A DNA stretch of 58,438 nucleotides from Bacteroidales bacterium (GCA_023145515.1 JAGLDP010000001.1:1-58438); one strand, 5' to 3'; positions 10,267 through 29,761 are shown, counted from the first letter of the stretch. Program-made: numbers and translations. The notes: a model not told the origin generated them from the sequence alone.

Positions 10267-11154
10267 GTGAATATAGCAATTGAAGACCTTACTCAGATTT
10301 ACCCCAATGGAAACCGGGCACTAAAAGATATCAATCTTGAGATCAAGGATGGTATGTTTGGATTGCTTGGTCCGAATGGAGCAGGTAAATCAACACTAAT
10401 GAAAATCCTGGTAACTCTGATGAAACCTTCACAGGGGAAGATTACTGTGAATGGTTTGGATTTGCAAAAAAACCGACGAAAGGTGAGATCAGTTCTGGGG
10501 TATTTACCTCAGGATTTTCGCTTTTTTGCCAAGCTTAGTACCTGGGAGTTCCTTGATTATTCAGCTCGTCTATCCGGTCTTCGGGATTCAAAGAAAAGAA
10601 ATTCTGAAGTAGATGCGATGCTTGAACAGGTAGGCCTGTTTGATGTTCGCGATCGTAAGGCCAACAAGCTTTCAGGGGGGATGAAAAGACGATTGGGTAT
10701 TGCTCAGGCCTTGATAGGAGATCCTAAAATAGTGATTGTTGATGAGCCAACAACAGGTCTTGATCCGGATGAAAGAATCAGGTTCAGAAATCTGCTCTCA
10801 AAAATGACAGAAAAGGAAATGATCATTATTCTTTCAACGCATATTGTTAGTGATATCTCAAGTACATGTAACGATATGGCGCTGTTAGATGATGGACAGC
10901 TGGTTTTCAACGGCTCACCTGACCAATTGATAGCCAAGGCCAAAGGTCATGTATTTCAATTGAGCGTGTCAAATGCTGAATTTGATAGAGTGAACGAGAA
11001 ATATAATGTGATCTCAACAATTCCGTCTGTAAATGGCTGGGAAATGCAGATTGTTGCCGATGAGTTTACTGAAATGCCTGCCACCTTAGTAGAGCCAAAT
11101 CTTGAACATGCTTATGTTTATTTTATGGAACACGATTTAAAAAACCAGGATTAA
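10267..11154 (+). CDS. ABC transporter ATP-binding protein (ABC-2 type)
   Basis: Walker A 'GPNGAGKST', Q-loop 'GYLPQDF', signature 'LSGGMKRRLGIAQ', Walker B 'IVIVDEPTTGLD', H-loop 'STHIV'. GTG 10267 chosen (VNIAIEDLTQIY...). The track start at 10219 is a TTG. Confidence 0.9.
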   Translation: MNIAIEDLTQIYPNGNRALKDINLEIKDGMFGLLGPNGAGKSTLMKILVTLMKPSQGKITVNGLDLQKNRRKVRSVLGYLPQDFRFFAKLSTWEFLDYSARLSGLRDSKKRNSEVDAMLEQVGLFDVRDRKANKLSGGMKRRLGIAQALIGDPKIVIVDEPTTGLDPDERIRFRNLLSKMTEKEMIIILSTHIVSDISSTCNDMALLDDGQLVFNGSPDQLIAKAKGHVFQLSVSNAEFDRVNEKYNVISTIPSVNGWEMQIVADEFTEMPATLVEPNLEHAYVYFMEHDLKNQD

Positions 11155-11166
11155 GCACATTTGATT

Positions 11167-14100
11167 ATGGGATTTATTGATAACATACGCACCGTGGCCC
11201 GCTTCGAATTAAGAACTCTCTTAAGAAGCTGGTTTTTTAGAATCTTTTCCGTTTTAACTCTGTTGATTCTATTAGGAATGAATATAGCCACTCTCACAGA
11301 AAGTGGAGATAATAACTGGGCAATTCGCTCAATTATTTCAAATATCCCCTATATGAATATGGCCTTTCTTAATATTGCCCAGGCTCTGCTTGCCATATTC
11401 CTTGCCTCAGACTTCCTTAAAAGAGATAAAAAGCTGGATACTACTGAGGTAATCTACACTCGCTCCATGACTAACTGGGAGTATGTTTGGGGAAAGACCT
11501 TGGGTGTAGTTTTGGTTTTTGGTATTTTGAATTTTCTGGTATTTCTGATGGCTCTAATCATCAATATTGTGATATCAGGTGTTGATGTTGATTATTTGGC
11601 TTACCTGCTTTATCCATTTTTGTTAGGATTTCCTACTCTTATTTTTACTCTGGGACTGGCTTTTCTGCTTATGTCTCTGATTCGAAATCAGGCTGTAACT
11701 CTGGTTGTATTATTAGGATTAGCTGCCTTGAGTTTGTTTTTTATTCAGGATAAAGTCAATCATCTCTTTGATTATATGGCTTTTACCTTTCCGTTTATGT
11801 GGTCTGACCTAATTGGATCAGGGAACCTACAGGAGATACTGCTGCATCGTGGTATCTACCTCTTTCTTGGATTAGCCTTTATTTTTGCTACAATTCTTCT
11901 CCTACAACGTCTGCCTCAATCTCGTCCGCTTTCAATACTCTCTTTTGTATTAATGCTGGGACTACTTGTTTTGGGATTGGGTGGTGGATTTACCTACTGG
12001 ACCAGCTTTAATAACGATAAGGAGTTCAGACAGGAGGTGAAAGAACTGAATGATATGGTTAGTAAGTTACCAGTTGTGCAAATTGAGACTTATGATCTTA
12101 AATTGGAGCATCTGGATGGATCTATATCTGTAGTTGCTAGTCTGGTTTCTGAAAAGGATGCTTCTGAGCTTCCAGAAACCCTGGTGTTTTCACTTAACCC
12201 AGGATTAATTATAGCTCAATGTAGTATAAATGGTGATGCTGTGGATTTTCAGCGTGAGAAGCATATTGTTAGAGTGCAAAAACCATCTGGTGTTACAGGA
12301 AAAGTGAAAATTGATTTTTCTTATCAGGGCGTTATCGATGAAAGAATCTGCTATTTAGATATTTCAGATGAAAATCTGACAACTAAGCATGGTCCGAGTT
12401 TTATTGTTGCTTCACCTAAGCGGCATGGTATTATCCAAAAGGATTATGTTTTACTCACCCCTGAATCTGTTTGGTATCCTGTTTCGGGTGGAACCTTTGG
12501 ATCAAACCTATCGGTGATGCCGGTGAAGCAATTCAGCAGTTACAATCTTGAAGTAACAACACAGGGAGGAATGATACCTATTTCTCAGGGTAAATCATCT
12601 CATGATGGCGATAATTGGAGTTTTGACTCTCAAACTCCTTTCCATGGAATTAGCCTGGTTATCGGTAATTATGAGAGTAAAAGTCTTGAATTAGATAGTC
12701 TTCTGCTTGAGATTCACTATTATAAAGGGCATGATAGTTTTTTTGAAATTCTTGGGCTTTTGGCCGATACATTACCAATGCTTGTGAATGAAACCCTCGA
12801 GGATTACCAAAGAAGTCTTGGCTTGAGCTATCCCTATGATTTTATGAAACTGGTAGAAGCTCCGGTACAGTTTTATTCGTATGACAGGATGTGGGCAAAA
12901 GGATATGATTATGTGCAGCCAGGAATGATTCTTTATCCTGAGAACCTATCATTTCTGAAACGTGGAAACATACGTAAGGAACTGGATCGGGCTATCGACA
13001 GAGCACTAGATAGAGATGACATGTCAACAGACGAGGATCTTCAAGCTCAGATTTTTATGAATTTGATTAAAAATAACTTCATCCAGGGTGTGACGAATTA
13101 CAGGATGATTATGCGTGGAGGGAGTTATAGCTCTTCTGAGTCAGATGCTCCACCATGGAGCATATTTCCAAACTATTTTGTTTATGCCAATAATTTTGTT
13201 TCTGATGAGTTTCAAATGATCAATGCAACTCTCGAATCATATATTGGAAGCAAGATAAATGTAACACGTGGATTCGGAAGAAGTATGGGGGGAATGTCAG
13301 GCGAGGAGAAAGCTAATCTGTCTCTGGTAGAGAATTCATTTGCTGAATTATTAAATATCCCTGATGAGAAGAATATTCTGCAATCAGTGATAGAGTCTAA
13401 AGGAAAACAACTCTTTAATTACCTTGAGGCTTCAATAGGAACAGATGAGTTTATCTCATTTATTACAAGTGAACTCGAAGGTTCAAGGTATACTGATGTT
13501 CTGTTCGATGATTTTGCTCAAAGGATTTTGGATAGTTATTCTATTGATATTAGTTCTTTTATGGAGAACTGGTATCAGGGAACTGATTTGCCGTCATTTT
13601 TGGTAACAGATGTGAGGAATTATGAGATACAGGAGGGAGAGAATACTGTTTTCCAGATCTTCTTTACCATTTCCAATACAGGGAATGTGGATGGCATGGT
13701 TAATGTCAGCTTTCGTACTGGTGGTAGAGGTGGACGTATGGGTGGCATGGGCATGGGGGGAGTGAGAAGCGCCCAAATTACAACATATTCTCTTGCAGGA
13801 CGCGATGATGCTACAAACCATCTTTACCTTGTTCCTGCTCAAACTGCTTATGAGTATGCTCTCATTCTTGATGACCAGCCACGAATGATGTCGGTTAATA
13901 CTTTAATCTCATCTAACCTTCCAGCTAACCTTACTTATCCCTTCCCGGATATCGAGAAAAATCGAATGGAGGGTAGTGAATTAGCTAAGCAAACAGAGCT
14001 TGTGACTACTCTTGCCCAGCCAAATGAGCTGATAGTAGATAATGAGGATAGAGGCTTCTCTGTTCATGAAGAAGGAACCTCAAATAAACTTTCAGGAATT

Positions 14101-14586
14101 CTCGGAATAGATCAAAAAAAATCTGATTTTAAGTATCAGGGTTTGAATGTCTGGCGACCTCCTTTGACATGGTCGTTAACAACCCAAACTGGGTTTTATG
14201 GTGATTATATTCGTTCAGCTCATTATACACGAAGTGGTGAAGGCGAAAGATATGTTGAATGGGAAATGGATATTACTGAAGCAGGGTACTATGACGTATA
14301 TTGTTATCTTAACTCAATGGTTGCACGCATGAGTCGATTCAGAGGACGCGGAGGTGATCGGGGGAGTGGCCGTGGAGGTGAATCTGATATAAAAGATGTG
14401 TATCATTATACCGTTTTTCACGATGATGGTGAAGATGAGGTGTCAAAAGCATTATCTAACATTGAGGATGGCTGGAATATGCTGGGGTCTTTCTACCTTT
14501 CTCCAGGAAAGGCAAAAATAAGACTGACTAATGAGAATACCGGAAGGCTGGTAGTAGCCGATGCTGTGAAATGGGAAAAACAATAA
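11167..14586 (+). CDS. ABC-2-type permease fused to a ~850-aa extracytoplasmic domain with a golvesin-like C-terminal module
   Basis: The first ~280 aa hold about 6 TM helices, with 'DKKLDTTEVIYTRSMTNWEYVWGK' typical of ABC-2 permeases. The rest is hydrophilic. The C-terminal 'GYYDVY...YTVFHDDGEDEV...GWNMLGSFYL..G.AKIRL...TGRLVVADAVKWEK' fits the golvesin C-terminal-like pattern. No HEXXH motif occurs anywhere in the protein. Confidence 0.75.
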   Translation: MGFIDNIRTVARFELRTLLRSWFFRIFSVLTLLILLGMNIATLTESGDNNWAIRSIISNIPYMNMAFLNIAQALLAIFLASDFLKRDKKLDTTEVIYTRSMTNWEYVWGKTLGVVLVFGILNFLVFLMALIINIVISGVDVDYLAYLLYPFLLGFPTLIFTLGLAFLLMSLIRNQAVTLVVLLGLAALSLFFIQDKVNHLFDYMAFTFPFMWSDLIGSGNLQEILLHRGIYLFLGLAFIFATILLLQRLPQSRPLSILSFVLMLGLLVLGLGGGFTYWTSFNNDKEFRQEVKELNDMVSKLPVVQIETYDLKLEHLDGSISVVASLVSEKDASELPETLVFSLNPGLIIAQCSINGDAVDFQREKHIVRVQKPSGVTGKVKIDFSYQGVIDERICYLDISDENLTTKHGPSFIVASPKRHGIIQKDYVLLTPESVWYPVSGGTFGSNLSVMPVKQFSSYNLEVTTQGGMIPISQGKSSHDGDNWSFDSQTPFHGISLVIGNYESKSLELDSLLLEIHYYKGHDSFFEILGLLADTLPMLVNETLEDYQRSLGLSYPYDFMKLVEAPVQFYSYDRMWAKGYDYVQPGMILYPENLSFLKRGNIRKELDRAIDRALDRDDMSTDEDLQAQIFMNLIKNNFIQGVTNYRMIMRGGSYSSSESDAPPWSIFPNYFVYANNFVSDEFQMINATLESYIGSKINVTRGFGRSMGGMSGEEKANLSLVENSFAELLNIPDEKNILQSVIESKGKQLFNYLEASIGTDEFISFITSELEGSRYTDVLFDDFAQRILDSYSIDISSFMENWYQGTDLPSFLVTDVRNYEIQEGENTVFQIFFTISNTGNVDGMVNVSFRTGGRGGRMGGMGMGGVRSAQITTYSLAGRDDATNHLYLVPAQTAYEYALILDDQPRMMSVNTLISSNLPANLTYPFPDIEKNRMEGSELAKQTELVTTLAQPNELIVDNEDRGFSVHEEGTSNKLSGILGIDQKKSDFKYQGLNVWRPPLTWSLTTQTGFYGDYIRSAHYTRSGEGERYVEWEMDITEAGYYDVYCYLNSMVARMSRFRGRGGDRGSGRGGESDIKDVYHYTVFHDDGEDEVSKALSNIEDGWNMLGSFYLSPGKAKIRLTNENTGRLVVADAVKWEKQ

Positions 14587-14606
14587 AAACAACAACAAAT
14601 TTCTAT

Positions 14607-16082
14607 ATGATGAAAAGATTAAGCTTCATTCTGTTAATTTTTATTCCGATGCTGATGATATCAGTTAAAGGAAAAGGGCAGCAAGTTCTGAGATTTCAGG
14701 ATGCTATCTCAGTGGCAGCAAAGCATAGTCCTGATATTAAGCGTGTTCAATTGAATATGGACAGGTCTCAGGAGTTACTTAAAGCTCAGAAAGCATCTCT
14801 TAAATCAAACTTCAGCTTCAATGTTAATCCCTTGAAGTACTCTCATGATCGTGGATTTAATGAGTATTACAATGAGTGGTACACCAAAGACAACTTGAGT
14901 AGCTCTGGTGCTCTGACGGTGTCTCAACCTTTGATTTGGACAGATGGAAATATTTCTATAAGCAATCAACTCAGGTGGCAAAATAGCTATAGTGAGATAA
15001 ATGATGCCAGGAATAAAACTTTCACTAATAATCTTTTTCTCCGTTATGATCAACCGCTTTTTACATATAACAGAACCAGGCAGGTACTGCAGGAACTTGA
15101 GCTGGATCTTGAAAATGCAGAGCTTAGTTTTGCTATGCAAATGCTGAATCTGGAAAGAATGGTTGCGCAAGGCTTCTATAGTGTTCATCAGCAACAGATG
15201 AGTTTGCAGATAACTGAAGAGGAGTATGCTAACCAGGTTGAGAGTTTCAATATTATAAAGAATAAGGTAGAAGGAGGTCTTGCTGCTCTTGAAGAGTTAT
15301 ACCAGGCTGAGTTAAACCTGGCAAAGAGTAATTCATCACTTAAGAATGCAATAGTTTCACTTGAAAATGCTAAAGACCAATTCAAAGTGCAGATTGGCAT
15401 GGATATTTATGAAGAGTTAGCCGTTTTGGCTAATGTTCAGACTGATTCAGTTCCAATTGACCTTAAAAAATCAATTGAAATGGGATTAGCAAACCGTTTG
15501 GAACTACGCCAGAGAGAAATTGATATTCAAAATGCGCAGTTTAGTCTCATCCAGACAAAATCAATTAATGAGTTTCGTGGAAATCTTTCGGTTGAAGTAG
15601 GACTCTTTGGTGATAATAAAAACCTGCCAAATATATATGATTCTCCAACTGATAATGAGCAGCTTGCACTTTCATTACAAATTCCGATTTTTGATTGGGG
15701 AGAAAGAAAAGCCCGGATCGCAGCTGCTGAAATTTCGATAAAATCATCTGAATTATCTTTGGCTGACGAAAGAAATGATATCATTATTGGAATCAGGGAA
15801 GTGTATAGGAATTTGCAAAACCTTCTGATACAGATCGATATATCTCATCAGAGTGAGCGCAATGCTCAACTAACTTATGAAATCAATTATGAGCGTTATA
15901 AAAATGGAGACCTGACAGGAATGGATCTTAGTCTATACCAAAATCAGCTTTCCCAAAGTAAAATTGATCTGTCAAATGCTATGATCAATTATAAACTCGA
16001 GTTATTAAATATGAAGATCCAAACCTTATACGACTGGGAAACCCAGACCTCTGTTGTTCCTGAAGAAATAAAAAATAAATAA
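14607..16082 (+). CDS. TolC-family outer membrane efflux protein
   Basis: Signal peptide 'MMKRLSFILLIFIPMLMISV' followed by two repeated coiled-coil/beta halves typical of OEP/TolC proteins. ATG 14607 chosen. Confidence 0.85.
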   Translation: MMKRLSFILLIFIPMLMISVKGKGQQVLRFQDAISVAAKHSPDIKRVQLNMDRSQELLKAQKASLKSNFSFNVNPLKYSHDRGFNEYYNEWYTKDNLSSSGALTVSQPLIWTDGNISISNQLRWQNSYSEINDARNKTFTNNLFLRYDQPLFTYNRTRQVLQELELDLENAELSFAMQMLNLERMVAQGFYSVHQQQMSLQITEEEYANQVESFNIIKNKVEGGLAALEELYQAELNLAKSNSSLKNAIVSLENAKDQFKVQIGMDIYEELAVLANVQTDSVPIDLKKSIEMGLANRLELRQREIDIQNAQFSLIQTKSINEFRGNLSVEVGLFGDNKNLPNIYDSPTDNEQLALSLQIPIFDWGERKARIAAAEISIKSSELSLADERNDIIIGIREVYRNLQNLLIQIDISHQSERNAQLTYEINYERYKNGDLTGMDLSLYQNQLSQSKIDLSNAMINYKLELLNMKIQTLYDWETQTSVVPEEIKNK

Positions 16083-16085
16083 ACC

Positions 16086-17153
16086 ATGAAACGAAATACA
16101 CTCATCAAGTACACCCTGATTCCTCTGTTTTTTCTTACTGTTCTGGCAGGTTGCAAGAATGAAGAGCCTGATGCAGAGGCAGATGTTGCTGTTCCCGTAT
16201 CAATCATTGATATTAAGTATCAATCTATTGAAGAGTTTATTACTACTAATGGAACCGTTCTTCCAACCAAGGAAGTGAAACTGGTTTCAGAAATGAGTGG
16301 TAAGTATAAATTATTGAATAATCCTCGTTCTGGTCGTGTGTGGGTCTTAGGAGATATTGTGAAAGCAGGCGATGTTGTTGTTTCCATTGAAGATGAGGAA
16401 TACGTCAACAATATCCAGATCAAATCAAAAGAGATGAATCTTGAGATCTCGAAGTCTGAGTTAGCAAAGATTAAGTCACTATATGAAAAAGGAGGTGAAA
16501 CGCTTAGAACTCTGAATACTGCTGAGCAAACCTTTATTAATGCTCAGTATACTTTGGAAAATGCCAAACTTCAAATGGCTAAAATGCAAGTGAAGGCTCC
16601 TTTTAATGGAGTTATTGTTGATCTTACATACTATACTCCAGGTAACAAAATCCAATCGAATGCTGAATTATTTAGCATAATGGATTATAAGAAATTATTT
16701 ATGGAAATTCAGCTGCCTGAGAAAAATCTTGCAAAAATCAATGTGAGCCAGAAGGTTAGAATTCTGAATTATACTATGCCTGATGATACTCTTTGGGGAA
16801 GCATTTCTCAAATGAGTCCGGCAATAAATCCTGATACCAGAAACTTTAAAGGGATAATTACAGTAAATAATGCTGATCTGCGTTTACGTCCTGGTAGTTA
16901 CGTCAGAGCTGAGATTGTTACCAACAGTAAAGACAGCACTATTGTTGTTTCTAAAGATATTATCGTTTCACGTCAAAGAGGAAAATCAGTCTTTATTGTC
17001 GAGCAGAATACTGCTTATGAAAAAACTATCAAAACCGGATTGGAAAACCCGGATCAGGTTGAGGTACTTGAAGGACTAAAATTGAATAATAGATTAGTTA
17101 CTGAAGGATTTGAAACCTTAGGTAACAGGTCTAAAGTGAAGATTATTCGTTAA
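16086..17153 (+). CDS. efflux RND transporter periplasmic adaptor subunit (MFP/HlyD family lipoprotein)
   Basis: Lipobox 'LTVLAGC'. Coiled-coil hairpin. Lipoyl-like 'VKAPFNGVIVDL' and 'LRPGSYVRAEI' strands. Confidence 0.88.
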   Translation: MKRNTLIKYTLIPLFFLTVLAGCKNEEPDAEADVAVPVSIIDIKYQSIEEFITTNGTVLPTKEVKLVSEMSGKYKLLNNPRSGRVWVLGDIVKAGDVVVSIEDEEYVNNIQIKSKEMNLEISKSELAKIKSLYEKGGETLRTLNTAEQTFINAQYTLENAKLQMAKMQVKAPFNGVIVDLTYYTPGNKIQSNAELFSIMDYKKLFMEIQLPEKNLAKINVSQKVRILNYTMPDDTLWGSISQMSPAINPDTRNFKGIITVNNADLRLRPGSYVRAEIVTNSKDSTIVVSKDIIVSRQRGKSVFIVEQNTAYEKTIKTGLENPDQVEVLEGLKLNNRLVTEGFETLGNRSKVKIIR

Positions 17154-17176
17154 TTAAATAAGGAAACTGCTTCATT

Positions 17177-20100
17177 ATGAAGAAGATCACCCAATTTTCT
17201 GTCAATAATCCGGTAACAGTCACCATGCTGATCCTTGGGGTTATCCTCTTAGGATTTATTTCCTTCGGAAAGCTTGGAACAGACCTCATGCCGGCAATGA
17301 ATAATCCACGTATCTACGTGGAGCTGACTGCTGGTGAGCGACCACCAGAAGAGATAGAGAAACAATTTGTAGATCAGATTGAATCCCTTTCCATCCGCCA
17401 GGCTGATGTTATAGGAGTATCATCTATGACCAGGGTTGGTTCAGCTCAAATAGCTGTTGAATATGCCTGGGATAAAGATATGGATGAGGCCTTTTTGGAA
17501 TTGCAGAAGGCTCTTGGATCCTATAATCAGAATGGCGACTTAGATGAGATTTTGATCACTCAGCATGATCCTAATGAAACACCTGTTTTGTTGGTGGGTA
17601 TGCAGCATGAATCAATTACGGATATGAATGAGCTTCGTAAAGTGGCTGAGAATTATATTCGAAATGAGCTGATCCGCCTTGAAGGAGTGGCTGATGTGAA
17701 GCTTGAAGGAATGGAGGAGAATGAGGTGGTTATTAAAACCGACTCATACAGAATGGAGGCTTTTGGTGTTAGCACAAATACTATCAGTGCGCAAATCCAA
17801 AACTACAATCGTAACGTGTCAGGAGGAAGTATCGTTGAGATGGGAACCAAGTATGTTATCAAGGGAGTCAGTATTTTTGAAGAACTTGATGATCTGCGGA
17901 AACTAATTATTGGCTTTCAGCAAGCTGAGTCTTCAGCCCAGGAAGAGAATCCTAACCGTGTACCCATTTTCTTGTCAGATGTTGCTGACATTAATTTTGA
18001 GAATAAGGAGCCAGTTAATATTGTTAGAATTAATGGCGTTAGAAGTATAGGACTAGGAATCTATAAGGAACCAAAATTTAATACTGTTAAGGCAGTTGAA
18101 GAATTGGAGATTGCTCTGATTGAGATCGAGAGAGCACTCCCAGGTTATTCTTTTCAGATTATCCAGGATCAGGGTAAATTTATTTCCAGTGCAATCGGTG
18201 AAGTGGAGAACACTGCCTTGATAGGAATCGTTCTGGCTGTTTTTATTCTGTTTATTTTTCTTAGAAGGATAGGTACTACTCTGATTGCCTCCATTGCTAT
18301 TCCGATATCCATTATTGCTACATTTAATCTGATGTATTTTAATGGACTGACAATCAATGTGATGACTTTGGGTGGCTTGGCTCTTGGTGCAGGAATGTTG
18401 GTTGATAATGCTATTGTGGTAATGGAAAATATCTTCCGGCACCTTGAGCGTGGCTTGTCGGTTAAAGAAGCCGCTATTACCGGAACAGCAGAAGTAGGTG
18501 GGGCAATTACTGCTTCAACCTTGACTACAATTGTGGTTTTTCTCCCTATCGTTTATATGCAGGGTGCATCAGGTGAACTTTTTAAAGATCAGGCCTGGAC
18601 AGTAGCTTTTTCCCTGGTGAGTTCTTTAGTTGTAGCTATTCTGGTTATACCAATGTTGTTTTCCAAATTCATTCGCATAAAATCTACTAAAACAATAAGT
18701 AAAGCCATTGGTTTTTCTTGGTATCCAAAAATATTGACTGGCATTTTAAAGGTGAAAACCATGGTAATGTTTCTGACACTGGCTATTGTAGTTGGTACAG
18801 CTTTCTTGGTTCCGAAGATAGGTAGCGAGTTTATGCCAAGAACAGAGACCAGAGAGTTTACTATGGAATTGAAGTTGCCTGAAGGAACCCAAATTGAGCG
18901 CACAGAACAGGCCGTGAATACTCTGGATGAGATGATTACCGAACTGCTTGGCGATGATATTGCCACCCTGTACGCAAGGATTGGTCCTGCGTCCAGCGGA
19001 TCAAATACAGCTACGGTTTTTGAAAATGAAAATACTGCCTCCATAAAAGTTCTTCTGAGCGATGATGCAACAATGACATCCAGTCAGATTATTAGACAAC
19101 TTGGTGTACTGGTAGCTAATATGTCTAATCTCGAAGTAAAGTTTATCCAGGATGAAACTGCTCTGCAGGCTACTCTTGGTACTGATGAAGCTCCTATTGT
19201 GGTTGAGGTTGTTGGAGAAGAGTTTGATCTTATTGAGCCTCTTACAGAACAGGTGAAGCAAATTATGCTGAATTCTGAGGATCTTTTCAATGTTGAGGGA
19301 AGTTTTGAACAGGGAGCACCTGAAATTGAAGTGGTTATTGATCGTTATAGGGCCGGGATTTATAGTATCTCAATTGATGAGATAATCAATCAGCTTAAGG
19401 CTGTTTTGACTGGTGCTGATGCCGGACAGTTTGAGCATGAAGGGGAATTGAAGGATATAACGATACGACTACCAGATGTTGGTTTTAGCCAACTTGAAGA
19501 TATTGTTCTTACTGCAGGTAATAGTGAATTGCGCCTAAGTGATGTCGCAACTATCAGGATTGTCAATGCCCCAAAAGAAATAATCAGAACAAACCAGAAT
19601 AGAGTAGGTCAGGTTTCAGCTGAAATTCGTAATGATAAACCAATTGATAAAGTAGTGAGTCAGCTCGATGAACAATTTGATGCTATCACTCTTCCTCCGG
19701 GATACTATATCAGACAGGCTGGAGAAGAGCTCAAAAGAAAAGAATCAATGGGCAGTCTGCGTTTTGCCCTGATTTTGTCGCTGATCCTTGTGTATATGGT
19801 TTTAGCCTCTCAATTTGAATCTCTCATTCATCCCTTTACCATCATCCTGACAGTTCCGATGGCGACAGTTGGAACCATTCTGTTGTTTTTTATCATGGGA
19901 CAAACAATGAATATTATGGCTCTGATCGGTTTAATTATGCTGATTGGTATAGCTGTCAATGATTCCATTATTCTTGTTGATAGAATAAACCAGTTGAAAG
20001 CACTTGGGTCATCGAGAAAAGAAGCTATTATTCAGGCTGCTCATCAAAGAATTCGACCTATTTTGATGACTAGTTTGACTACCATTCTGGCCTTATTGCC

Positions 20101-20269
20101 CTTAACCTTTGGTTTTGGTGAAAGTGTATCTCTTCGGGCACCGATGGCTCTCGCCGTGATTGGCGGACTCTTTACATCGACCCTTTTAACTCTAATTGTT
20201 ATCCCTTGTGTGTATGAAATATTTGATCGTTTCAAGGATTGGATATCACCAGTAAGAACAACAGTATAG
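17177..20269 (+). CDS. efflux RND transporter permease subunit (AcrB family), paralog 1
   Basis: 1030 aa in the 12-TM / two-periplasmic-loop layout. TM4 'GAGMLVDNAIVVMENI', TM10 'LIGIAVNDSIILVD', TM11 'RIRPILMTSLTTILALLPL'. Confidence 0.92.
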   Translation: MKKITQFSVNNPVTVTMLILGVILLGFISFGKLGTDLMPAMNNPRIYVELTAGERPPEEIEKQFVDQIESLSIRQADVIGVSSMTRVGSAQIAVEYAWDKDMDEAFLELQKALGSYNQNGDLDEILITQHDPNETPVLLVGMQHESITDMNELRKVAENYIRNELIRLEGVADVKLEGMEENEVVIKTDSYRMEAFGVSTNTISAQIQNYNRNVSGGSIVEMGTKYVIKGVSIFEELDDLRKLIIGFQQAESSAQEENPNRVPIFLSDVADINFENKEPVNIVRINGVRSIGLGIYKEPKFNTVKAVEELEIALIEIERALPGYSFQIIQDQGKFISSAIGEVENTALIGIVLAVFILFIFLRRIGTTLIASIAIPISIIATFNLMYFNGLTINVMTLGGLALGAGMLVDNAIVVMENIFRHLERGLSVKEAAITGTAEVGGAITASTLTTIVVFLPIVYMQGASGELFKDQAWTVAFSLVSSLVVAILVIPMLFSKFIRIKSTKTISKAIGFSWYPKILTGILKVKTMVMFLTLAIVVGTAFLVPKIGSEFMPRTETREFTMELKLPEGTQIERTEQAVNTLDEMITELLGDDIATLYARIGPASSGSNTATVFENENTASIKVLLSDDATMTSSQIIRQLGVLVANMSNLEVKFIQDETALQATLGTDEAPIVVEVVGEEFDLIEPLTEQVKQIMLNSEDLFNVEGSFEQGAPEIEVVIDRYRAGIYSISIDEIINQLKAVLTGADAGQFEHEGELKDITIRLPDVGFSQLEDIVLTAGNSELRLSDVATIRIVNAPKEIIRTNQNRVGQVSAEIRNDKPIDKVVSQLDEQFDAITLPPGYYIRQAGEELKRKESMGSLRFALILSLILVYMVLASQFESLIHPFTIILTVPMATVGTILLFFIMGQTMNIMALIGLIMLIGIAVNDSIILVDRINQLKALGSSRKEAIIQAAHQRIRPILMTSLTTILALLPLTFGFGESVSLRAPMALAVIGGLFTSTLLTLIVIPCVYEIFDRFKDWISPVRTTV

Positions 20270-20278
20270 GCAGGTAAT

Positions 20279-23200
20279 ATGAAGGCAGTAATATATCGGA
20301 AAACACTTATTGGGATGGTCTTTATAGGCCTTACCTTACTTGGTGTGGTTTCCTATCAGCAGCTACCCGTTGAGCTATTCCCGAATGCAGTTGCACCTCA
20401 GTTAATAGTACAGATTAGCTCTCAGATAGAGGTAGATCCAAGCTATATGGAAAGGCAGGCCATTATCCCAGTTGAAGGAGCAATTGGGACATTGGATGAT
20501 ATAGAGGAAATTAGTTCTAATGCTTCAAGAAGAAGGGGGATTATCTATATATCCTATCAGCAGGATGTTAATATCAAATTCGCTGAACTGAAGCTTCAAG
20601 AGAAAATGAACGGGATTCGCGATGAACTCCCGGAGGAATTTATGATTACGGTGGTGAAGGTAGACCTTGAGCAAATGGCAAATCAGGTGATGGGCCTTGA
20701 GGTGCGGGGAAGCGGAGGTGTTAACCGAATTAGAAATATCACAGATGAGGATATTGTTTCCAAGCTTGAAAATATTGATGGGATAGCCGGATTGGAGGTT
20801 TATGGGGGACAAGAAAAATCCTTAGAAATTACACTTGATGAGGATGCATGTGAAGCTTATGGTATTACTCCATTCCAGGTGCGAAATGCTTTGAACCAGA
20901 ATGGAAAGTTAAGAACCTTTGTAGGGCCAGTTGTTGACGGACAAAAAAAACTTTTTGTTCATGTATCTGCTGAATATGTTCGCATAGCTGATATCGAAAC
21001 TCTTGTGGTTTCTGAAAATGGTCCGATTCTTCTTAGAGACGTTGGAGAAGTGTACTTTGGAGTTAAGGAGCAAACAAGCTATTCGCGTGTAAACGCTCAA
21101 GAATCAGTTACCGTGAGTCTGATCAGTGATTCTCAAGCCAATCTGATTGATCTCTCTCATGAAGTAGAAACTGTTGTTGAACAGCTGAATAAAGAATTAG
21201 CAGCCATTGGTATTGAGGTGGTTGTTCAGGATAATATGGCCGAACTGATGGAGAAGAATATCGATCAGATTATCCAGCTGGCTCTGACAGGCGGACTATT
21301 GGCTATTATGGTATTGTGGATTTTTCTGGGGAATGTCAGACTTGTATTTGCTATTGCACTCGCTATCCCGATATCGGTGTATACTGCTTTTAACTTCTTC
21401 TATGCTGCTGGAATATCGATCAATAGCCTAACCCTGGTGGGTATGGCTCTCGCTATTGGTATGCTGCTTGATAACTCGGTTGTTGTTCTTGAAAACATAT
21501 ACCGACATGCCTCGCAGGGAAAAAACCCAATAGAGTCGGTGCTCCTTGGTACACGTGAGGTGTGGAGATCAATTCTGGCAGCTACTCTGACTACTGTAAC
21601 AGTATTTTTGCCTTTTATTTTCTCAGATAATTTTCTGATACGAATAATGGGTAACCACATTGGAGTATCTATTATTTCTACTCTCCTGGTTTCACTATTT
21701 GTGGCTCTGTTTTTTGTTCCGATGGTAACCCATTGGTTTATGATGCGGAAAGGAGGACAGAAACAAATGGTTTATGCTAAGGTGTCTTTGCATAATCGCC
21801 TTATACAGACCTATATATTGATTCTTAAGGCTAGTATGCGTCGACCTGCTTTGACTATTGTGGGAGCACTCGTAGTGTTTTTTATTACCATTTTTATTGC
21901 TTTGGCTGTTTCAACCAATACTCTACAGGAGGCAGAAACCGATGAAATCAGAATGTCGGTTACAATGGCGGGTGGTACTACTTTAGAGACTACGGATATC
22001 ACTGTTCGTATCATGGAGGAGAGACTAATGCAGATTGCCGAAAGAGAGGATCTGACTGCCGAGGTTAGAGAGGGTGAGGCTACAGTAACTATGAAGCTAA
22101 AGGAGGATTATCAGGATATAGACGGACGATCACTGGCAGGGATTAAAGAGGATATGGAGAGAAGATTAAAGGATCTTCGTTCAGCTGAAATTGAATTTCA
22201 GGAATTCTCTGCTTCATCCGGATTTGGCGGCGGTGGTGGTGGAGGTGGTGGTCCGGGTAATTCAGGAGGTGGATTTGAATCCTTCCTCGGAATCGGTACA
22301 CAGCAGGAAAAAGTCATCATCAAAGGCCAGAATTTTGAAGTACTGAGGAGCGTTGCTGAGGATATGGAGTATTACCTTGATGAGCTTGATAATATTGCAA
22401 GCGTTAATCTTAGTGTTGCTGATAACCGTCCTGAAGTTCACATGGCTTTCAACACAAGAGAGATGGGCGAACGCAATGTACCCCTATCAAGTGTATCCTC
22501 TGAATTGAGCTCTTTCCCCTCAGAAATTACCTCCGGAGCAGTTTTTAAGGAAGGTACAGAGGAATACGATATTATTATCAAAATGGATATTCCTGAGGAA
22601 GAAACAGAACGATCCATGGATGAGCTGAAAGAACTCAATATCCCTTCTTCTGATAGACAATCACAGCATGAGCTTCAGCAGTTAAGCCATATCTATTTTT
22701 CTCGCGGATTGTCAGATATCGATAGGGTAAACCAGGAAAAACAAGTTGAGGTAACTTATCGTTTTGAGAACGAGGTTAACAACTCAAAAGCTCTGTTAGA
22801 CCTTGCTCGTACAGAGATTGATGAGCTTATAGCAGGAGTTAGTATTCCATCTGGGGTGGCAGTAGAAGTGGTGCATGAAGAAAATGATTTTAAGGAGTTT
22901 TATTTCCTTATTGCAGCTGCTTTTATTCTCATTTTTATGATTTTGGCCTCTGTCTTTGAGTCATTTCTCACGCCAATAGTTCTTATGTTTACTATTCCCC
23001 TGGCTGGGATTGGTTCATTTTTGGCATTGATATTTACGAAAAATTCAATTTTGAATGCCAATACTCTTACAGGTTTTCTGATTTTACTGGGTATTGTGGT
23101 GAATAATGGTATAATTCTGATCGACTACGCCAATCTGCTGAGAAAGAGAGGGTTCCGTCTCTCCAGAGCACTCATGACTGCTGGTCTGGCAAGGATAAGA

Positions 23201-24991
23201 CCTATTATGATTACTGCAGTTACTACTATTGTGGCAATGCTGCCTCTGGCAATGGGGAAATCTGAATATGTTAGCTTGATAGGAGCACCCTTTGCTATTA
23301 CAGTAATTGGCGGACTAAGTGTTAGTACAATACTGACTCTTGTTTTTGTTCCTACTTTATACTCCGGACTAGAATTCTCGCTTGCATGGATTCGTAGCCA
23401 GAAATGGTGGGTGAAAGTATTTATGACAGTAACAGTACTTGGACTAGGAGTTCTGATATATTTCAGAGTAGATGCTTTCCTATGGCAACTATTGCTTTAC
23501 TTACTAGTTACTGTGGGTGTTCCAGCCTCAACATGGTTCTTGCTAAACAGTTTGCGAAAAGCAAGTGAAACTGTAATTCCAGATGATAAGCCAATAATCA
23601 TTCATATTCAGAATTTGGTGAAGATTTACGATTGGGATAACAAATTCACCCGTGAATGGAAATCCGGATTGGCAATCAGAAAACGATTAGGATTAACCCG
23701 AACATACGAATCAGCGAAAGATTTGATTGTTCTGATATGGCAGATTCCTCTTCTGGGATTTTTGCTGTTTTTCGTGTATTTCTATCTTGATTCAGGACTA
23801 TGGCTATTTGTGCTTACCTTATTTGTGTATGCCATCTTGTTAATGGTTTGGCAGCCCATTGGATCATGGATGAGCAACTCAGGTGGCAAGAGAAAGAAAT
23901 TTGCAGGACTGGTAAGAATGCTGATTCTATGGGGATTCCCGGTATTTTCCTTAATTCTTTTCCATAAGCGCTGGGATAATATGGCCTTAGAGATTCTGAT
24001 TGGATTAGCATGGTTTTTTGCTTTGATGGTATATGCAACTGCAAGGGTGCTTAATGAGAAGCACATTAATGTAAACCGTATTACCGGTCGTTTTGGTCTT
24101 CTCCGTAGGGGTTTCTTCAGAATGGTTCAATCGATCCCGGTGATCGGAAAGAAAAAGAAACCATTCAAAGCCCTGGCAGGAGTATCGATGGAAATTTCGT
24201 CTGGTATGTTTGGATTATTAGGACCTAATGGTGCCGGTAAAACTACCATGATGAGAATTATTTGCGGAATTCTTGAGCAAAGCTATGGCAAGATATGGAT
24301 CAGCGGAGAGGATACTCAGATTAAAAGAGAGGAACTGCAAGGTCTTATTGGGTATCTGCCTCAGGAATTTGGTATGTATGAGAATATGACCGCTGACGAG
24401 TTTCTTCATTACCAAGGAATGCTCAAAGGCTTGACAGATCCTAAGGTACGTTCTGAACGGGTTGATTATACCCTCAATGCGGTGCATATGATTGAAAAGA
24501 AGGATCACAAAATTGGATCGTTCTCAGGAGGAATGAAGCAAAGGATTGGAATAGCACAAATACTTCTCCATTTGCCAAGAATTCTTGTGGTTGATGAGCC
24601 TACAGCCGGACTAGATCCGCGTGAGAGAATCCGTTTTAGAAATTTGCTGGTGCAACTTTCACGCGAAAGGGTCGTAATTTTCTCAACGCATATTATTGAA
24701 GATATATCCAGCTCGTGCAACCAGGTTGCTGTACTCAATCAAGGCGAGCTGAAGTATCTTGGCAATCCTCAGGAGATGTCAGACACAGCCAAAGGCGCTG
24801 TATGGCAGGCTGAAGTGACGGTAAGTGAATTTGATAAACTTTCTGAAGAATACAAGGTGGTGCACCATATGCGCGATGGCAATAATATACGTGTTAGATT
24901 GCTTGCCGCTGAGAAGCCTACTGATGATGCTATACCAGTTACACCTTTGCTTGAGGATGCTTATTTGTGGATGTTAGGTAAAAAAATCTGA
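20279..24991 (+). CDS. RND (AcrB-type) permease, paralog 2, fused in frame to extra TM helices and a C-terminal ABC ATPase domain
   Basis: A single stop-free 1570-codon ORF. Residues 1 to ~1030 form a full RND layout (TM4 '[16 protein letters not shown]', TM11 '[19 protein letters not shown]'). Two further TM helices follow, then '[14 protein letters not shown]', then four TM helices. The NBD follows with Walker A 'GPNGAGKTT' (24221-24246), signature '[13 protein letters not shown]', Walker B '[12 protein letters not shown]' and H-loop 'STHII'. Confidence 0.85.
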   Translation: [1570 protein letters not shown]

Positions 24992-24998
24992 ATAATTA

Positions 24999-25715
24999 AT
25001 GGCAACAAATAAAATAACAATAATTGCTGATTGGTTGTGGCGAATGCTTCGTTATAATCTGAAAATCATATTTGCTAACAAATTCATTTGGTTTCTATTG
25101 GCAGCACTAGGATTCTTTATCATGGTTACTCTGATCACTTTGTTTTCAGGAAGCATGATAACAACCGGTATAGTGTATAACCTATTGCTTTACCCTGGTT
25201 TACTTCTTATATTTTACCCTACAGTTTTTGGAATTCAAAATGATGAAGATAATCGGATTCTTGAAATACTTTTCGGTATTCCTGACTATCGATATAAGGT
25301 TTGGTTGGTGAGACTAATAATGATCTTTATTCTGGTTTTTGCAGTGCTTTTTCTCCTTGCCTGGTTTTGTTCTTGGGCATTGGCCAGCTTTACTCCAATT
25401 TATATGGCTTATCAGCTGATCTTCCCTATTTTCTTCATGGGAACGCTTGCTTTTTTTCTATCAACAATAGTTAGGAATGGAATCGGAACAGCTGTTATTT
25501 TGGTTATTATTGGTATAGTTTTTACCTCACTTGCTGAAGCTATCGAACAAAGCAAATGGAACGTTTTTCTAAACCCTTTCAAAATGCCAGAACAGCTTAG
25601 CGAAGCAGTCTGGCTAAATACAGTTCATGATAACAGATTAATTATACTTGTCGCGATAATCTTATGCATACTAGGTGGCTTGCTTAGTATGCAGAGGCGG
25701 GAGAAGTTTATTTAG
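24999..25715 (+). CDS. ABC-2-type transporter permease (6 TM)
   Basis: 238 aa with six hydrophobic helices. 'NDEDNRILEILFGIPDYRYKVWLVRL' is equivalent to the ABC-2 loop motif of the 11167 permease. Starts 7 nt after the fused NBD. Confidence 0.7.
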   Translation: MATNKITIIADWLWRMLRYNLKIIFANKFIWFLLAALGFFIMVTLITLFSGSMITTGIVYNLLLYPGLLLIFYPTVFGIQNDEDNRILEILFGIPDYRYKVWLVRLIMIFILVFAVLFLLAWFCSWALASFTPIYMAYQLIFPIFFMGTLAFFLSTIVRNGIGTAVILVIIGIVFTSLAEAIEQSKWNVFLNPFKMPEQLSEAVWLNTVHDNRLIILVAIILCILGGLLSMQRREKFI

Positions 25716-25739
25716 GTGATTCTGTGATTCTGTGATTCG
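25716..25739. repeat. tandem octamer (GTGATTCT)x2 + GTGATTCG
   Basis: Read directly from the sequence. Begins at the base after the TAG stop at 25713-25715. Confidence 0.9.
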
Positions 25740-25775
25740 GGGTTTCTCGGTTAATTGTTTTATTTTTAGGGTAGA

Positions 25776-28163
25776 ATGATTGTGTTGAACCTTAAACTGG
25801 CTTTAAAAATCGTATTTGATAAGCGAAATTCCTCTTGGATTAGCATTCTTGGATTAGCGATTGCTTTTGCTTCTTTATTCTATATTTATTCCTACGTTTC
25901 CTTTGAGTTAAGCTATGATTCGCAGCATGAGGATCATAGTCGCATTTATAGAATTAGCGGCGATATCGTGGCTGCTGAGAATACAATGACACATGCTGTA
26001 TTGGGACCTTCAATGGGGCAAGGCCTGAAGGATGAATTTCCTGCTGTTGAATCCTTTGTTCGTCTTATTCCATTCCATGAATCAATCCTTCTCGAAACAG
26101 AAATGAAACAGTTTTCAGTGGATGAAGCATATAGAGTTGACTCAACCATTTTTGATATATTCAGTTTGGTCTTTCTGTATGGATCTCCTCATTCTGCGCT
26201 CACAAATCCCAATGAAATTGTTATTAATCAAAGCCTGAGTCAGAAGTTTTTTGGTGATCAGAATTCAGTAGGTGAGGTGCTGGAATATGATGGTCAGATA
26301 TATACAATAGTAGGCGTAGTAGAAGATTCTCCAGTCAATTCTCATCACAAGCTAAACGTCTTATTTTCAATCGACTCGCCTTTTACCAGAACAGGAGATA
26401 TTTCTCCTGTTCAAGAGTCAGAGTACTATTGGGCGCCATCAGCATTTCATTTTATTATGCTAAAACAGCATACTGAGATAGAATCAATCACAGATAATTT
26501 TGAGCCCTTCTTTGATAAATACATGAGCACTTTCGGAAAACTGTTAAACGCCGATTTCAATCTAATAGCCATTCCTCTAAAAGACTTGCATTTTTCTCGC
26601 CAAATGACATATGATCTTCCGAAAGGGAACAAGACCTATGCTTACATACTCATTATGGTTGGCCTTTTCATATTCCTGATTGCCACCATCAACTATTCTA
26701 ATCTTTTAGTCTCTCAGACTATTACACAGGCCAAAAGTGTGGGTCTAAGAAAAGTACTGGGAGCCAATCAGCTGACTCTTTACTTTCAATTTCTACTAAA
26801 CTCTCTGGTTTTAATTTTAGTCTCTGTAATTCTGGCCAATATATTTTTTCAGATTAGTTTACCCTGGTCAAAAGAACTGACTGAACTGGAAAGATCCATC
26901 TTCTCTGGCTCAAGGATACTGACTCTCTCTCTTGTTTTCATACTTCTCACAAGCCTGACTACTTCTTTGATACCTTTTCTTAATCACCGGAAAAAGAGTG
27001 GACTGCAATTACTCCAAGCCCGGCAAAGAAGTTTATCTGGATTAGGGAGTATTCAGTTTGGAAGAGTATCTACTATCGTCCAGTATGCCCTGACCATTGT
27101 TTTAGTGATTTCAGTTTTTGTGATTACGCGGCAATTAAACTTCCTGATGAAAAGTGAAATGGGTTTCGACAAGGAAGGTATTGTGATGTTACCTTTGAAT
27201 AGCCTAAAAGAGCAATCGCAAGGCATTAAATCTTTCAAAGAGGAAATCAGTAAAAATTCTTCTGTGGCAAATGCCTCCTTTTCAAGCAATATACCTGGAG
27301 AAATATTAGGAACATCTCATTTTCAGATAGACCGTGATGGGGAGACTGTGACCAAAATTGTTCATACACTGGGGGTTGATTATGAGTATTTTACGCTTAT
27401 GGGAATGGAGTTTAAAGAAGGACGTAATTTTGGGGAGTTATTTAGCGATAACAACTTTCAATCGGTGATCATTAATGAGGCCTTTATCGATTTTTGTGGT
27501 TACAACGGCAGTATGTTAGGAGTAGAATTAGCAGGAACTAAAGTTGTTGGAGTGCTTAAAAACGTCTCCTTCAACTCTCTGCATAACCCGGCAGCACCCT
27601 TAGTCTTTTATTTGAGTGAAGAGACAAATGGCTATTTGAATATTAAATTGAATACCACCAGACTAGATGAAGCAGTCAAAATGATTCAAAGTAATTGGGA
27701 GGTTGTTTATCCCGATGTCCCGTTTGTTTTCCAATTCCTTGATCAACAAGTGGCAAAAATGTATACTGAGGATCAAAAGATTAACAAGCTGATCAAGCTT
27801 TTCACACTGATCAGCCTGATTATTTCCCTTATGGGCTTTCTAAATCTTTCTACATTAATCATGAAAAGAAAGACGAAGGAAATAGGAATTCGAAAAGTAA
27901 ACGGAGCTACCGTTTATGAGATCATGGGTATGCTGAACAAAAATTTTGCCGTCTGGATTCTGATTTCTTTTGTAATCGCCGGTCCCATAGCTTATTATGC
28001 AGCAATTAAGTGGCTGGAGAACTTTGCATACAAGACTACATTGCCGTGGTGGATATTTGCTTTGTCAGGGCTTCTGGCATTAAGTATTGCCCTGTTAACG
28101 GTGAGCTGGCAGAGCTGGCGCGCAGCAACAAAAAACCCAATTGAAGCTTTACGATACGAGTAA
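25776..28163 (+). CDS. FtsX/MacB-type ABC transporter permease (duplicated FtsX + MacB periplasmic domains)
   Basis: 795 aa. An N-terminal TM helix, a large periplasmic domain and three TM helices, with this unit repeated twice. 'KEIGIRKVNGAT' is the FtsX cytoplasmic loop motif. Confidence 0.88.
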   Translation: MIVLNLKLALKIVFDKRNSSWISILGLAIAFASLFYIYSYVSFELSYDSQHEDHSRIYRISGDIVAAENTMTHAVLGPSMGQGLKDEFPAVESFVRLIPFHESILLETEMKQFSVDEAYRVDSTIFDIFSLVFLYGSPHSALTNPNEIVINQSLSQKFFGDQNSVGEVLEYDGQIYTIVGVVEDSPVNSHHKLNVLFSIDSPFTRTGDISPVQESEYYWAPSAFHFIMLKQHTEIESITDNFEPFFDKYMSTFGKLLNADFNLIAIPLKDLHFSRQMTYDLPKGNKTYAYILIMVGLFIFLIATINYSNLLVSQTITQAKSVGLRKVLGANQLTLYFQFLLNSLVLILVSVILANIFFQISLPWSKELTELERSIFSGSRILTLSLVFILLTSLTTSLIPFLNHRKKSGLQLLQARQRSLSGLGSIQFGRVSTIVQYALTIVLVISVFVITRQLNFLMKSEMGFDKEGIVMLPLNSLKEQSQGIKSFKEEISKNSSVANASFSSNIPGEILGTSHFQIDRDGETVTKIVHTLGVDYEYFTLMGMEFKEGRNFGELFSDNNFQSVIINEAFIDFCGYNGSMLGVELAGTKVVGVLKNVSFNSLHNPAAPLVFYLSEETNGYLNIKLNTTRLDEAVKMIQSNWEVVYPDVPFVFQFLDQQVAKMYTEDQKINKLIKLFTLISLIISLMGFLNLSTLIMKRKTKEIGIRKVNGATVYEIMGMLNKNFAVWILISFVIAGPIAYYAAIKWLENFAYKTTLPWWIFALSGLLALSIALLTVSWQSWRAATKNPIEALRYE

Positions 28164-29659: not shown

Positions 29660-29722
29660 TATTTCCGGGTTTTAGTTTTCAAAAGAATTTTTGTTCATAT
29701 CAGGATTGGTAAATTTACATTG

Positions 29723-29730: not shown

Positions 29731-29761
29731 TGTTTACCTTTCAATAATTGAATTTCTTATT

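Follow-up and report, generated by a model that had tools for sequence, protein, structure and literature searches.

Do neighbouring genes for two ATP-binding cassette (ABC) modules and a tripartite pump of the resistance-nodulation-division (RND) type form one transport system, or are they independent transporters that lie side by side? The question is raised by a locus in a 58,438-nucleotide stretch of DNA from a Bacteroidales bacterium (GCA_023145515.1, JAGLDP010000001.1:1-58438; hereafter the window; G+C ~39%), in which eight consecutive open reading frames (ORFs), all on the + strand, run from 10219 or 10267 to 28163. A first interpretation, which we call the sequence-only reading, had taken these genes (g1 to g8) as one unit in which ABC modules enclose a TolC, an adaptor, and two RND permeases, and had listed a fusion of the second permease (RND2) to an ABC nucleotide-binding domain (NBD) as one item among others. 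Here we report that this covalent fusion, with its family-specific linker and its split NBD, is the decisive feature of the locus. Genes g1 through g7 (10267-25715) probably constitute one operon for a composite envelope-spanning exporter of bacteria of the Fibrobacteres-Chlorobi-Bacteroidetes (FCB) group, in which ATP-driven and proton-driven steps are most likely coupled.

RND2 and an ABC ATPase domain are a single protein

The sixth gene, g6, is one ORF of 1570 aa (20279-24991, + strand) in which Pfam places both an RND domain (ACR_tran, residues 2-1029) and an ABC ATPase domain (ABC_tran, residues 1301-1443), in agreement with the fusion first proposed. The RND2 part (residues 1-1029; 20279..23365) is a full-length permease domain of 12 transmembrane (TM) segments (PF00873, E 2.5e-159, model positions 3-1018). 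The distal part (24167..24991; PF00005, E 2e-27) encodes most of an NBD followed by a C-terminal domain of the regulatory type.

Relatives were collected by a pattern search, built from an alignment of the fusion protein, against one genome per species in GTDB. Among these species representatives 35 loci encode the fusion, with matches that span residues 1 to ~1566 at 34-58% identity, and in 31 of 31 loci a single unbroken ORF encodes both RND2 and the NBD. A search with the C-terminal 541 residues returned more than 100 protein clusters (54-69% identity), most of them truncated by contig ends, with both PF00873 and PF00005. Databases name the fusion just 'efflux RND transporter permease subunit' or 'ABC-type multidrug transport system ATPase subunit'. 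In two loci from metagenome-assembled genomes (MAGs; L001, contig_8767, and L021) the RND and fusion genes are broken by frameshifts; frameshifted long-read assemblies of this sort account for many database 'proteins' of 800-950 aa that consist of half an RND permease plus an NBD.

The linker between the two domains was used as a query of 267 residues against 1.84 billion representative proteins and gave 95 hits. All full-length hits are 1550-1585 aa long and carry the linker at ~1025-1295. Because every full-length hit is a fusion, the linker is unique to the fusion family; neither a stand-alone linker-NBD protein nor an unfused intermediate occurred among the 95 hits, the shorter of which resemble contig fragments.

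The fused NBD is split by a membrane insertion

Hydropathy analysis placed six TM helices in g6 beyond the 12 of the RND domain, two at residues 1044-1062 and 1066-1089 and four within residues 1149-1257. In an AlphaFold2 (AF2) model of the C-terminal fragment (predicted local distance difference test, pLDDT, 82), the corresponding helices fall at fragment residues 14-34 and 38-67 for TM13-14 and at 117-140, 144-171, 175-203, and 206-231 for TM15-18. The first two helices form an extra hairpin that is conserved in orthologues (residues 1044-1089; 23408..23545), and the last four form an insertion (23723..24049) between beta-strands 1 and 2 of the NBD. Between hairpin and insertion, residues 1090-1148 are a cytoplasmic stretch that contains IIIHIQNLVKIY (residues 1103-1120; 23585..23638). 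Since the loops obey the positive-inside rule, the fused NBD is cytoplasmic.

Several lines of evidence identify IIIHIQNLVKIY as the first beta-strand of the NBD together with its A-loop. The AF2 model has a beta-strand at residues 1108-1115 with helices on both sides, and all 19 diverse orthologues compared, Latescibacterota included, have K1115 and Y1117. When residues 1101-1122 were spliced onto the NBD core, the score against a hidden Markov model (HMM) built from g1 orthologues rose by 10.7 bits, from 318.4 to 329.1, and the start of the alignment moved from HMM position 17 to position 3. As a control, 22-mers that were random or shuffled added ~1.0 +/- 1.3 bits, and the top-scoring 22-mers across the whole linker begin at residues 1096-1103. 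The NCBIfam GldA model begins to align at its position 1 in g1 and at position 10 in g6. Because IIIHIQNLVKIY supplies the displaced strand 1 and the A-loop tyrosine, the NBD of g6 is split by a four-helix membrane insertion in the turn between beta-strands 1 and 2; strand and A-loop lie ~180 residues upstream of the remainder, and the NBD fold is not contiguous.

The TM13-14 hairpin tethers the NBD to RND2. None of the catalytic motifs (Walker A, Q-loop, the signature SGGMKQR, Walker B D-E, H-loop) varies among 121 fused homologues, and to judge by these residues the fused NBD looks functional; the displaced strand and the insertion show it as pinned to the membrane. We also considered whether the six-TM linker is a cryptic ABC membrane domain and rejected this candidate; profile-profile comparison with g7 and with the membrane domain of g2 gave a probability below 1%. 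Foldseek searches with the C-terminal model found matches through the NBD alone (TM_1403, NosF, and ABCA).

Seven genes, in fixed order, are conserved across phyla

Gene order in the 35 loci was read by tblastn with the proteins of the window, and some of the fetched stretches could not hold all genes. The order g1-g2-g3-g4-g5-g6-g7 was identical in 21 loci, and about ten more had the same order for each gene that the fetched stretch could hold. The seven-gene order is conserved in ~30 genomes of Bacteroidota (several orders), Calditrichota, and Latescibacterota, among them Draconibacterium, Prolixibacter, Marivirga, Parabacteroides, Bacteroides, Rikenellaceae, and Calditrichaceae. Carriers of the fusion are found among Marinilabiliales (Draconibacterium, Prolixibacter, Mangrovibacterium, Mariniphaga, Maribellus, Saccharicrinis, Carboxylicivirga, and Breznakibacter), Bacteroidales (Rikenellaceae, Proteiniphilum, Parabacteroides, and Bacteroides), and Cytophagales (Marivirga and Cyclobacteriaceae), and outside Bacteroidota in one Calditrichaceae MAG and two Latescibacterota genomes. 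A search begun from a 44%-identical homologue of g2 (locus L082) led to the same cassette. The most distant example, from Latescibacterota (OZ244847.1, 1448-15401; RND2 35% identical), has g1, g2, g4, g5, g6, and g7 in order, without a gene for an outer-membrane factor between g2 and g4, and retains the displaced NBD strand ('LEIRNLTKIY'). Orthologues of g1 stand first in the cassette and are 58-68% identical, g3 is conserved at its position in 28 loci, and g7 follows g6 in 33 loci as the last conserved gene.

A complete g3-g7 cassette was also present on a contig (CAYFVQ010000257.1) from a MAG labelled 'uncultured Eubacteriales'. Labelling or binning is probably at fault here, because a TolC/adaptor/RND system implies a diderm.

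Flanking genes vary from genome to genome. When all ORFs in the 6 kb downstream of g7 were clustered, no gene was common to more than four of the 35 loci, and tblastn found no homologue of g8 within 10 kb downstream in any of them. Because g8 is absent from all related loci, we take the functional unit to be the seven genes at 10267-25715, and the lack of a MacB ATPase beside g8 is therefore uninformative about the cassette. Thus, the sequence-only reading was right that an ABC module, a TolC-adaptor-RND-RND core, and a second ABC module do not lie together by chance; the eight-gene order that it put forward for comparison proved syntenic from g1 to g7 and failed at g8, and an eight-gene unit is contradicted by these loci.

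The two NBDs are paralogues

The first gene, g1 (10267..11154, + strand), encodes a free ABC ATPase of the ABC-2/ABCA-like kind, an NBD with a C-terminal domain of the regulatory type (PF00005, E 9e-35). Its nearest solved relatives are the NBDs of ABCA4, ABCA7, ABCA1, and ABCA3 and NosF. The protein scores below the family cutoffs for GldA (203.7 vs 402.6 bits) and DrrA (202.9 vs 312.45 bits; E 7e-60), and the NCBIfam match table shown for g1 contains no NosF model.

Catalytic NBD motifs are visible in both g1 and g6, with PF00005 scores well above the cutoff, and the two NBDs share 45% identity across 271 residues, C-terminal extension included, as expected of the paralogues with similar extensions that had been proposed. 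A neighbour-joining (NJ) tree recovered each NBD clade as monophyletic (bootstrap 80/100 and 100/100); inheritance of g1 through g7 as a block would fit this monophyly. The same tree grouped the two clades with a bootstrap of 47/100, and a reading of g1 and the g6 NBD as sister duplicates was not upheld. NBDs of this subfamily also occur widely as stand-alone proteins where no RND is present.

The channel, the adaptor, and the RND pair

The core of the cassette consists of components of known kinds. The third gene, g3 (14607..16082, + strand), encodes an outer-membrane factor of the TolC family (PF02321, OEP, E 1e-40, in 3 stretches). It is followed by g4 (16086..17153, + strand), a periplasmic adaptor of the membrane fusion protein (MFP) family (HlyD_D23; TIGR01730, RND_mfp, 172.7 bits against a cutoff of 94.9), whose translation carries the lipobox LAGC of a lipoprotein. 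From the gene content, one TolC and one adaptor would serve all modules. The fifth gene, g5 (17177..20269, + strand), encodes RND1, a full-length 12-TM permease (PF00873, E 1e-205, model positions 1-1020 of 1021) whose best solved relative is MdtB. RND1 and RND2 are 26% identical and are old paralogues.

We compared the proton-relay residues in ~31 orthologues of each RND paralogue. The equivalents of D407 (TM4) and R971 (TM11) are conserved in both. At the TM10 position after that of AcrB K940, RND2 always has N; RND1 of this window has D there, as do about half of its orthologues. Because both proteins keep the TM4 Asp and the TM11 Arg, proton coupling does not appear, from these residues, to have been obviously lost. 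The possibility that ATP replaces proton coupling in RND2 was rejected, as the relay is not specifically degraded in the fused paralogue relative to RND1.

A further difference between the paralogues lies in the periplasmic part. RND2 residues 645-668 (22211-22282) form a Gly/Ser-rich, length-variable loop, SGFGGGGGGGGGPGNSGGG, followed by a conserved 'F..LLGIG...E..IIKG' motif; it is present in all ~31 RND2 orthologues and absent from RND1. A search of the PDB aimed at placing this loop on a solved RND gave a low-complexity false match alone.

The permeases encoded by g2 and g7

The second gene, g2 (11167..14586, + strand), encodes a giant permease of 1139-1141 aa. Its first 275 residues form an ABC-2-type membrane domain of ~7 TM segments (PF12679, a marginal 28.3 bits against a cutoff of 27.2). 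Since these ~7 segments are N-terminal, the ~860-aa remainder is periplasmic, in keeping with the giant ectodomain first described. An AF2 model of g2 (pLDDT 84; predicted template-modelling score, pTM, 0.80) was searched with Foldseek, and the ectodomain matched the M1 aminopeptidases ERAP1, IRAP, APN, and PepN (E ~1e-15, ~680 columns); C-terminal beta-sandwich domains (Golvesin_C, PF25275) come after the M1 fold. At the sequence level the Peptidase_M1 match is weak, with PF01433 reaching 21.6 bits against a cutoff of 27.7 and spanning the tail of the catalytic-domain model only. Neither HEXXH nor HXXXH occurs anywhere in the g2 protein. Because an M1 fold is predicted without these motifs, the ectodomain appears to be a pseudo-peptidase. 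Names of g2 homologues in databases are uninformative ('hypothetical', 'golvesin C-terminal-like'), with one source calling them a NosY-like permease.

The most conserved patch of the ectodomain is at residues 566-594, where E566, P568, Q570, Q586, P587, and E594 are invariant ('VEAPVQFYSY...VQPGMILYPE'); these residues might line what was once the M1 active-site cleft and be a remnant that binds a ligand. In the periplasmic beta-sandwich region, residues 856-877 (13726-13791) and 1061-1074 (14341-14382) form Gly/Arg-rich, 'RGG'-like loops with AF2 confidence below 50. Orthologues are Gly/Arg-rich there too, with greatly varying lengths.

The seventh gene, g7 (24999..25715, + strand), encodes a small, divergent ABC-2-like permease of 238 aa with six hydrophobic segments, taken as six TM helices; on its own it has no Pfam match above threshold. 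Its TM2-TM3 cytoplasmic loop is highly conserved, and hhalign pairs this loop with an equally conserved loop in g2. In type-V ABC permeases, the TM2-TM3 loop carries a coupling helix. We presume that g7 is the partner of the fused NBD. The statement that each NBD is followed by an ABC-2 permease stands as far as gene order goes; the assignment to the ABC-2 family is marginal for g2 and is based on weak signals for g7.

Boundaries of the probable operon and neighbouring genes

ORF calls together with Pfam and NCBIfam matches supported the eight same-strand genes and the tiny gaps between them. Alternative starts are given for g1 (10219/10267), g2 (11161/11167), and g3 (14571/14607). With the start codons of the sequence-only reading, the gaps from g1 to g8 measure 12, 20, 3, 23, 9, 7, and 60 nt, so that those inside g1-g7 are 3-23 nt. 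On the 5' side the operon is bounded by the intrinsic terminator of the upstream DUF6249 gene (10141..10179, + strand), which is as strong as had been claimed, with a 16-bp stem, a 4-nt loop, and a T-run. The accompanying claim that no terminator lies inside the locus held for the gaps within g1-g7, where a hairpin scan found no convincing terminator; the g7-g8 gap has one weak 5-bp hairpin (25737-25750). That gap (25716-25775) also contains a short direct repeat, GTGATTCT, in ~2.5 copies, and an AT-rich stretch. A scan for promoters of the sigma-70 type gave counts at chance level, its model being uninformative for Bacteroidota promoters, and Rfam and tRNA scans of the window gave no matches.

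The eighth gene, g8 (25776..28163, + strand), encodes a duplicated FtsX permease of the ADOP/MacB type (MacB_PCD PF12704, two FtsX PF02687, TIGR03434). It is a bystander, a lineage-specific neighbour outside the conserved cassette, and may have its own promoter. No MacB-type ATPase gene adjoins g8, as had been remarked, and there is none elsewhere in the window, where the only other ABC ATPase is of the ABC-F type (34029-35957).

Upstream of the cassette lie a gene for a sigma factor of the extracytoplasmic function (ECF) type (9067-9651, minus strand), a 149-aa ORF (8621-9070) that overlaps the end of the sigma gene and possibly encodes an anti-sigma factor, and, directly before the cassette, a gene for a DUF6249 membrane protein (9760-10125). 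The same trio precedes the cassette in L082 (7439-8925), and the genes for TGT and LptF/G that lie upstream in the window are found there too. The ECF-sigma and DUF6249 neighbours recur upstream solely in this closer relative and not in more distant carriers, and the trio may be a lineage-specific regulator. Downstream, at 28385-33604 and 34029-35957, are unrelated genes of the housekeeping type, which encode an M64 (IgA-peptidase-like) metallopeptidase (minus strand), an MscS-family channel, CYTH and GWxTD proteins, a SpoU methylase, and the ABC-F protein.

Comparison with known transport systems

To our knowledge, no ABC architecture with an NBD split by a four-helix membrane insertion has been described, and we know of no ABC-2 (type V) exporter whose NBD is either fused to an RND or split by four TM helices. 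Full-text literature searches turned up neither an RND-ABC fusion nor an ABC/RND/ABC sandwich, so the suggestion that the arrangement is undescribed stands in respect of these searches. Among the curated models of NCBIfam and Pfam, none represents the fusion, the linker, the whole of g2, or g7. The building blocks are all of known kinds; what appears undescribed is the way they are combined, the covalent joining of RND to NBD, and an NBD split by TM helices. In its available part, a 2021 review gives RND, ABC, or major facilitator superfamily (MFS) proteins as the only inner-membrane engines of tripartite systems (PMC8277102).

The closest relatives of the RND core are MdtABC-TolC and MuxABC-OpmB, which likewise have tandem RND paralogues and a single adaptor gene (here g4-g5-g6, an order kept in relatives); the same part of that review cites MdtBC as a rare RND heterotrimer (PMC8277102). 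However, g5 is not an orthologue of either Mdt permease (368 bits with the MdtC model, whose cutoff is 1774, and 345 bits with that of MdtB, whose cutoff is 1584). In contrast to MdtABC, RND2 here adds a six-TM tether and an ABC NBD, and the operon supplies two ABC-2 modules as well as an outer-membrane factor of its own. The proton relay also differs from that of the AcrB type, reading D-N / N-(D/N) rather than D-D / K-N.

On the ABC side, the cassette shares an ABC-2/ABCA-type NBD with a C-terminal regulatory domain with NosDFY, YbhGFSR, DrrABC, and the eukaryotic ABCA proteins, and the conserved TM2-TM3 coupling loop of the permease with ABC-2 exporters; its scores stay below every equivalog cutoff for such systems. 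YbhGFSR is an ABC-2 system encoded together with an adaptor. The large extracytoplasmic domain of g2 recalls the ectodomains of ABCA proteins and the NosD partner, but its M1-peptidase fold is not homologous to either. With the M1 aminopeptidases ERAP1, IRAP, and PepN it shares the same multi-domain fold; unlike these enzymes, it lacks HEXXH, has an ABC-2 membrane domain as its anchor, and precedes Golvesin_C domains. MacAB-TolC embodies a shared idea, that of an ATP-driven inner-membrane part acting by mechanotransmission with an adaptor and a TolC-like channel. The ABC parts of the cassette are ABC-2-like, however, and not MacB/FtsX-like, and g8 lies outside the cassette and has no NBD.

The closest functional parallel is the export of phthiocerol dimycocerosate (PDIM) in M. 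tuberculosis, which, in the available part of the source, involves the RND protein MmpL7, with the role of DrrABC under study (PMC11539658), so that an RND and a DrrA-type ABC are there implicated in the handling of one envelope lipid. Unlike the present cassette, MmpL7 and DrrABC are separate proteins, with no fusion, no adaptor or outer-membrane factor, and an RND of the MmpL type.

How the cassette might work

We infer from these data a single transcript and a physical complex beyond the covalent fusion, together with an NBD pairing, an RND stoichiometry, and a kind of substrate. As in RND pumps built from two paralogues, RND1 and RND2 would provide the path out of the periplasm, together with a single adaptor and a single TolC-like channel. 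The C-terminus of RND2 would carry, on its six-helix tether, an NBD that is catalytically intact by its motifs and that, with g7, would hold an ABC-2-type module against the RND. The g1 ATPase would drive g2, whose pseudo-aminopeptidase domain would sit beside the RND/adaptor assembly. One or both ATP-driven modules would take up an amphiphilic substrate from the cytoplasm or the inner leaflet, by extraction or by flipping, and pass it to the proton-driven RND, to be expelled through the channel in a hard-wired two-step relay. The NBDs could pair as two homodimers or as a g1/g6 heterodimer with the membrane domains of g2 and g7. Candidate substrates could include an envelope lipid, a bile or detergent-like compound, or a peptide.

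A number of points weigh against such a coupled exporter. The positions of AcrB D408 and K940 are both occupied by N in each of the two RND paralogues, and no homology could be detected between the linker and any ABC membrane domain. The resemblance of g7 to ABC-2 permeases is weak; three of 19 orthologues match ABC2_membrane_3 at E <=1e-3 (best 9e-4), and hhalign aligns g7 to the g2 membrane domain with E 7e-4 and a probability of 27%. The two NBD clades are joined as sisters with a bootstrap of 47 in 100, and what ties g1 and g2 to the RND machinery is their conserved synteny. A threefold RND trimer and a twofold ABC dimer do not obviously fit each other. Among the neighbouring genes, no biosynthetic or regulatory one hints at a substrate.

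A more specific form of the coupled exporter can be drawn, in which the cassette would encode a single machine, a pump of dual energy supply (ATP and proton-motive force) that would make up a fourth class among tripartite efflux systems. The fused NBD would pair with that of g1, and g2 and g7 would form an asymmetric, ABCA-like transporter docked on an RND1(2)·RND2(1) heterotrimer. Extraction from the inner leaflet or cytoplasm by ATP would be coupled mechanically and stoichiometrically to proton-driven expulsion, with the pseudo-M1 ectodomain as the periplasmic hand-over chamber. We offer these details as one joint proposal, and as a tentative one; that all of them hold together is possible but rather unlikely.

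Alternative explanations

We consider it doubtful, though well worth weighing, that the ABC modules move no substrate at all and that the cassette works by mechanotransmission, as do MacB, LolCDE, and NosDFY. ATP would then drive the M1-fold clamp of g2 and, via the tether, RND2, and the resulting movements would load, gate, or assemble the RND/adaptor/channel conduit. The huge periplasmic fold of g2 would suit such a role, being of a type known in open and closed states from ERAP1 and IRAP and missing its zinc motif; the NosY-like label of its homologues and the presence of NosF among the nearest solved NBDs point in the same direction, as does a fused NBD that is pinned by insertion and tether with no recognisable ABC membrane domain. 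However, g2 and g7 have ABC-2-like domains of 6-7 TM segments with conserved TM2-TM3 loops, as do translocating type-V exporters, and the nearest solved relatives of the NBDs are ABCA lipid translocators.

It is improbable that the locus houses independent transporters, namely a g1/g2 ABC-2 exporter, a two-RND pump (g3-g6), and a second ABC-2 exporter, which would be co-regulated for related stresses while the fusion merely co-expresses its parts in fixed amounts. Each NBD coding region does have its own permease gene directly after it, and the same NBD subfamily is common in stand-alone form where there is no RND. Yet the fusion is present in all 31 genomes across phyla, its family-specific linker of 270 aa is never found unfused, and the order of g1-g7 is invariant while the genomic flanks change.

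Inclusion of g8 as a third ABC-type component that uses either NBD and the shared adaptor and channel is very improbable. The gene is on the same strand, 60 nt from g7, with no strong terminator between them and no MacB-type ATPase in the window to serve it. This reading is contradicted by synteny, there being no g8 homologue within 10 kb downstream in the 35 loci. Moreover, permeases of the MacB type pair with MacB-type NBDs rather than ABC-2/ABCA-like ones, and Bacteroidota genomes contain many orphan permease genes of the ADOP type.

Finally, that an assembly or sequencing error joined an RND gene to an ABC gene can be dismissed as virtually impossible, as nothing speaks for it (the frameshifts of L001 and L021 split the gene rather than join it) and it is refuted by the uninterrupted ORF in 31 of 31 independent genomes, isolates included, by the more than 100 clusters with both domains, and by purifying selection on the linker, in which W, P, K, Y, and G residues are invariant.

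Significance

Cooperation between transporters that move substrates from cytoplasm to periplasm and RND pumps that move them from periplasm to the outside has been argued from genetics. The weld of an RND to an ABC domain, in an operon with both ABC permeases, one adaptor, and one channel, would be a natural experiment on this cooperation. It makes testable whether one machine can couple ATP-driven and proton-driven steps and how a threefold RND and a twofold ABC dimer fit together, and it opens to test the periplasmic role of a catalytically dead M1-peptidase fold. Since its carriers include gut genera (Parabacteroides and Bacteroides) and many sediment Bacteroidota, the substrate of this exporter could matter for the envelope biology or the resistance of these bacteria.

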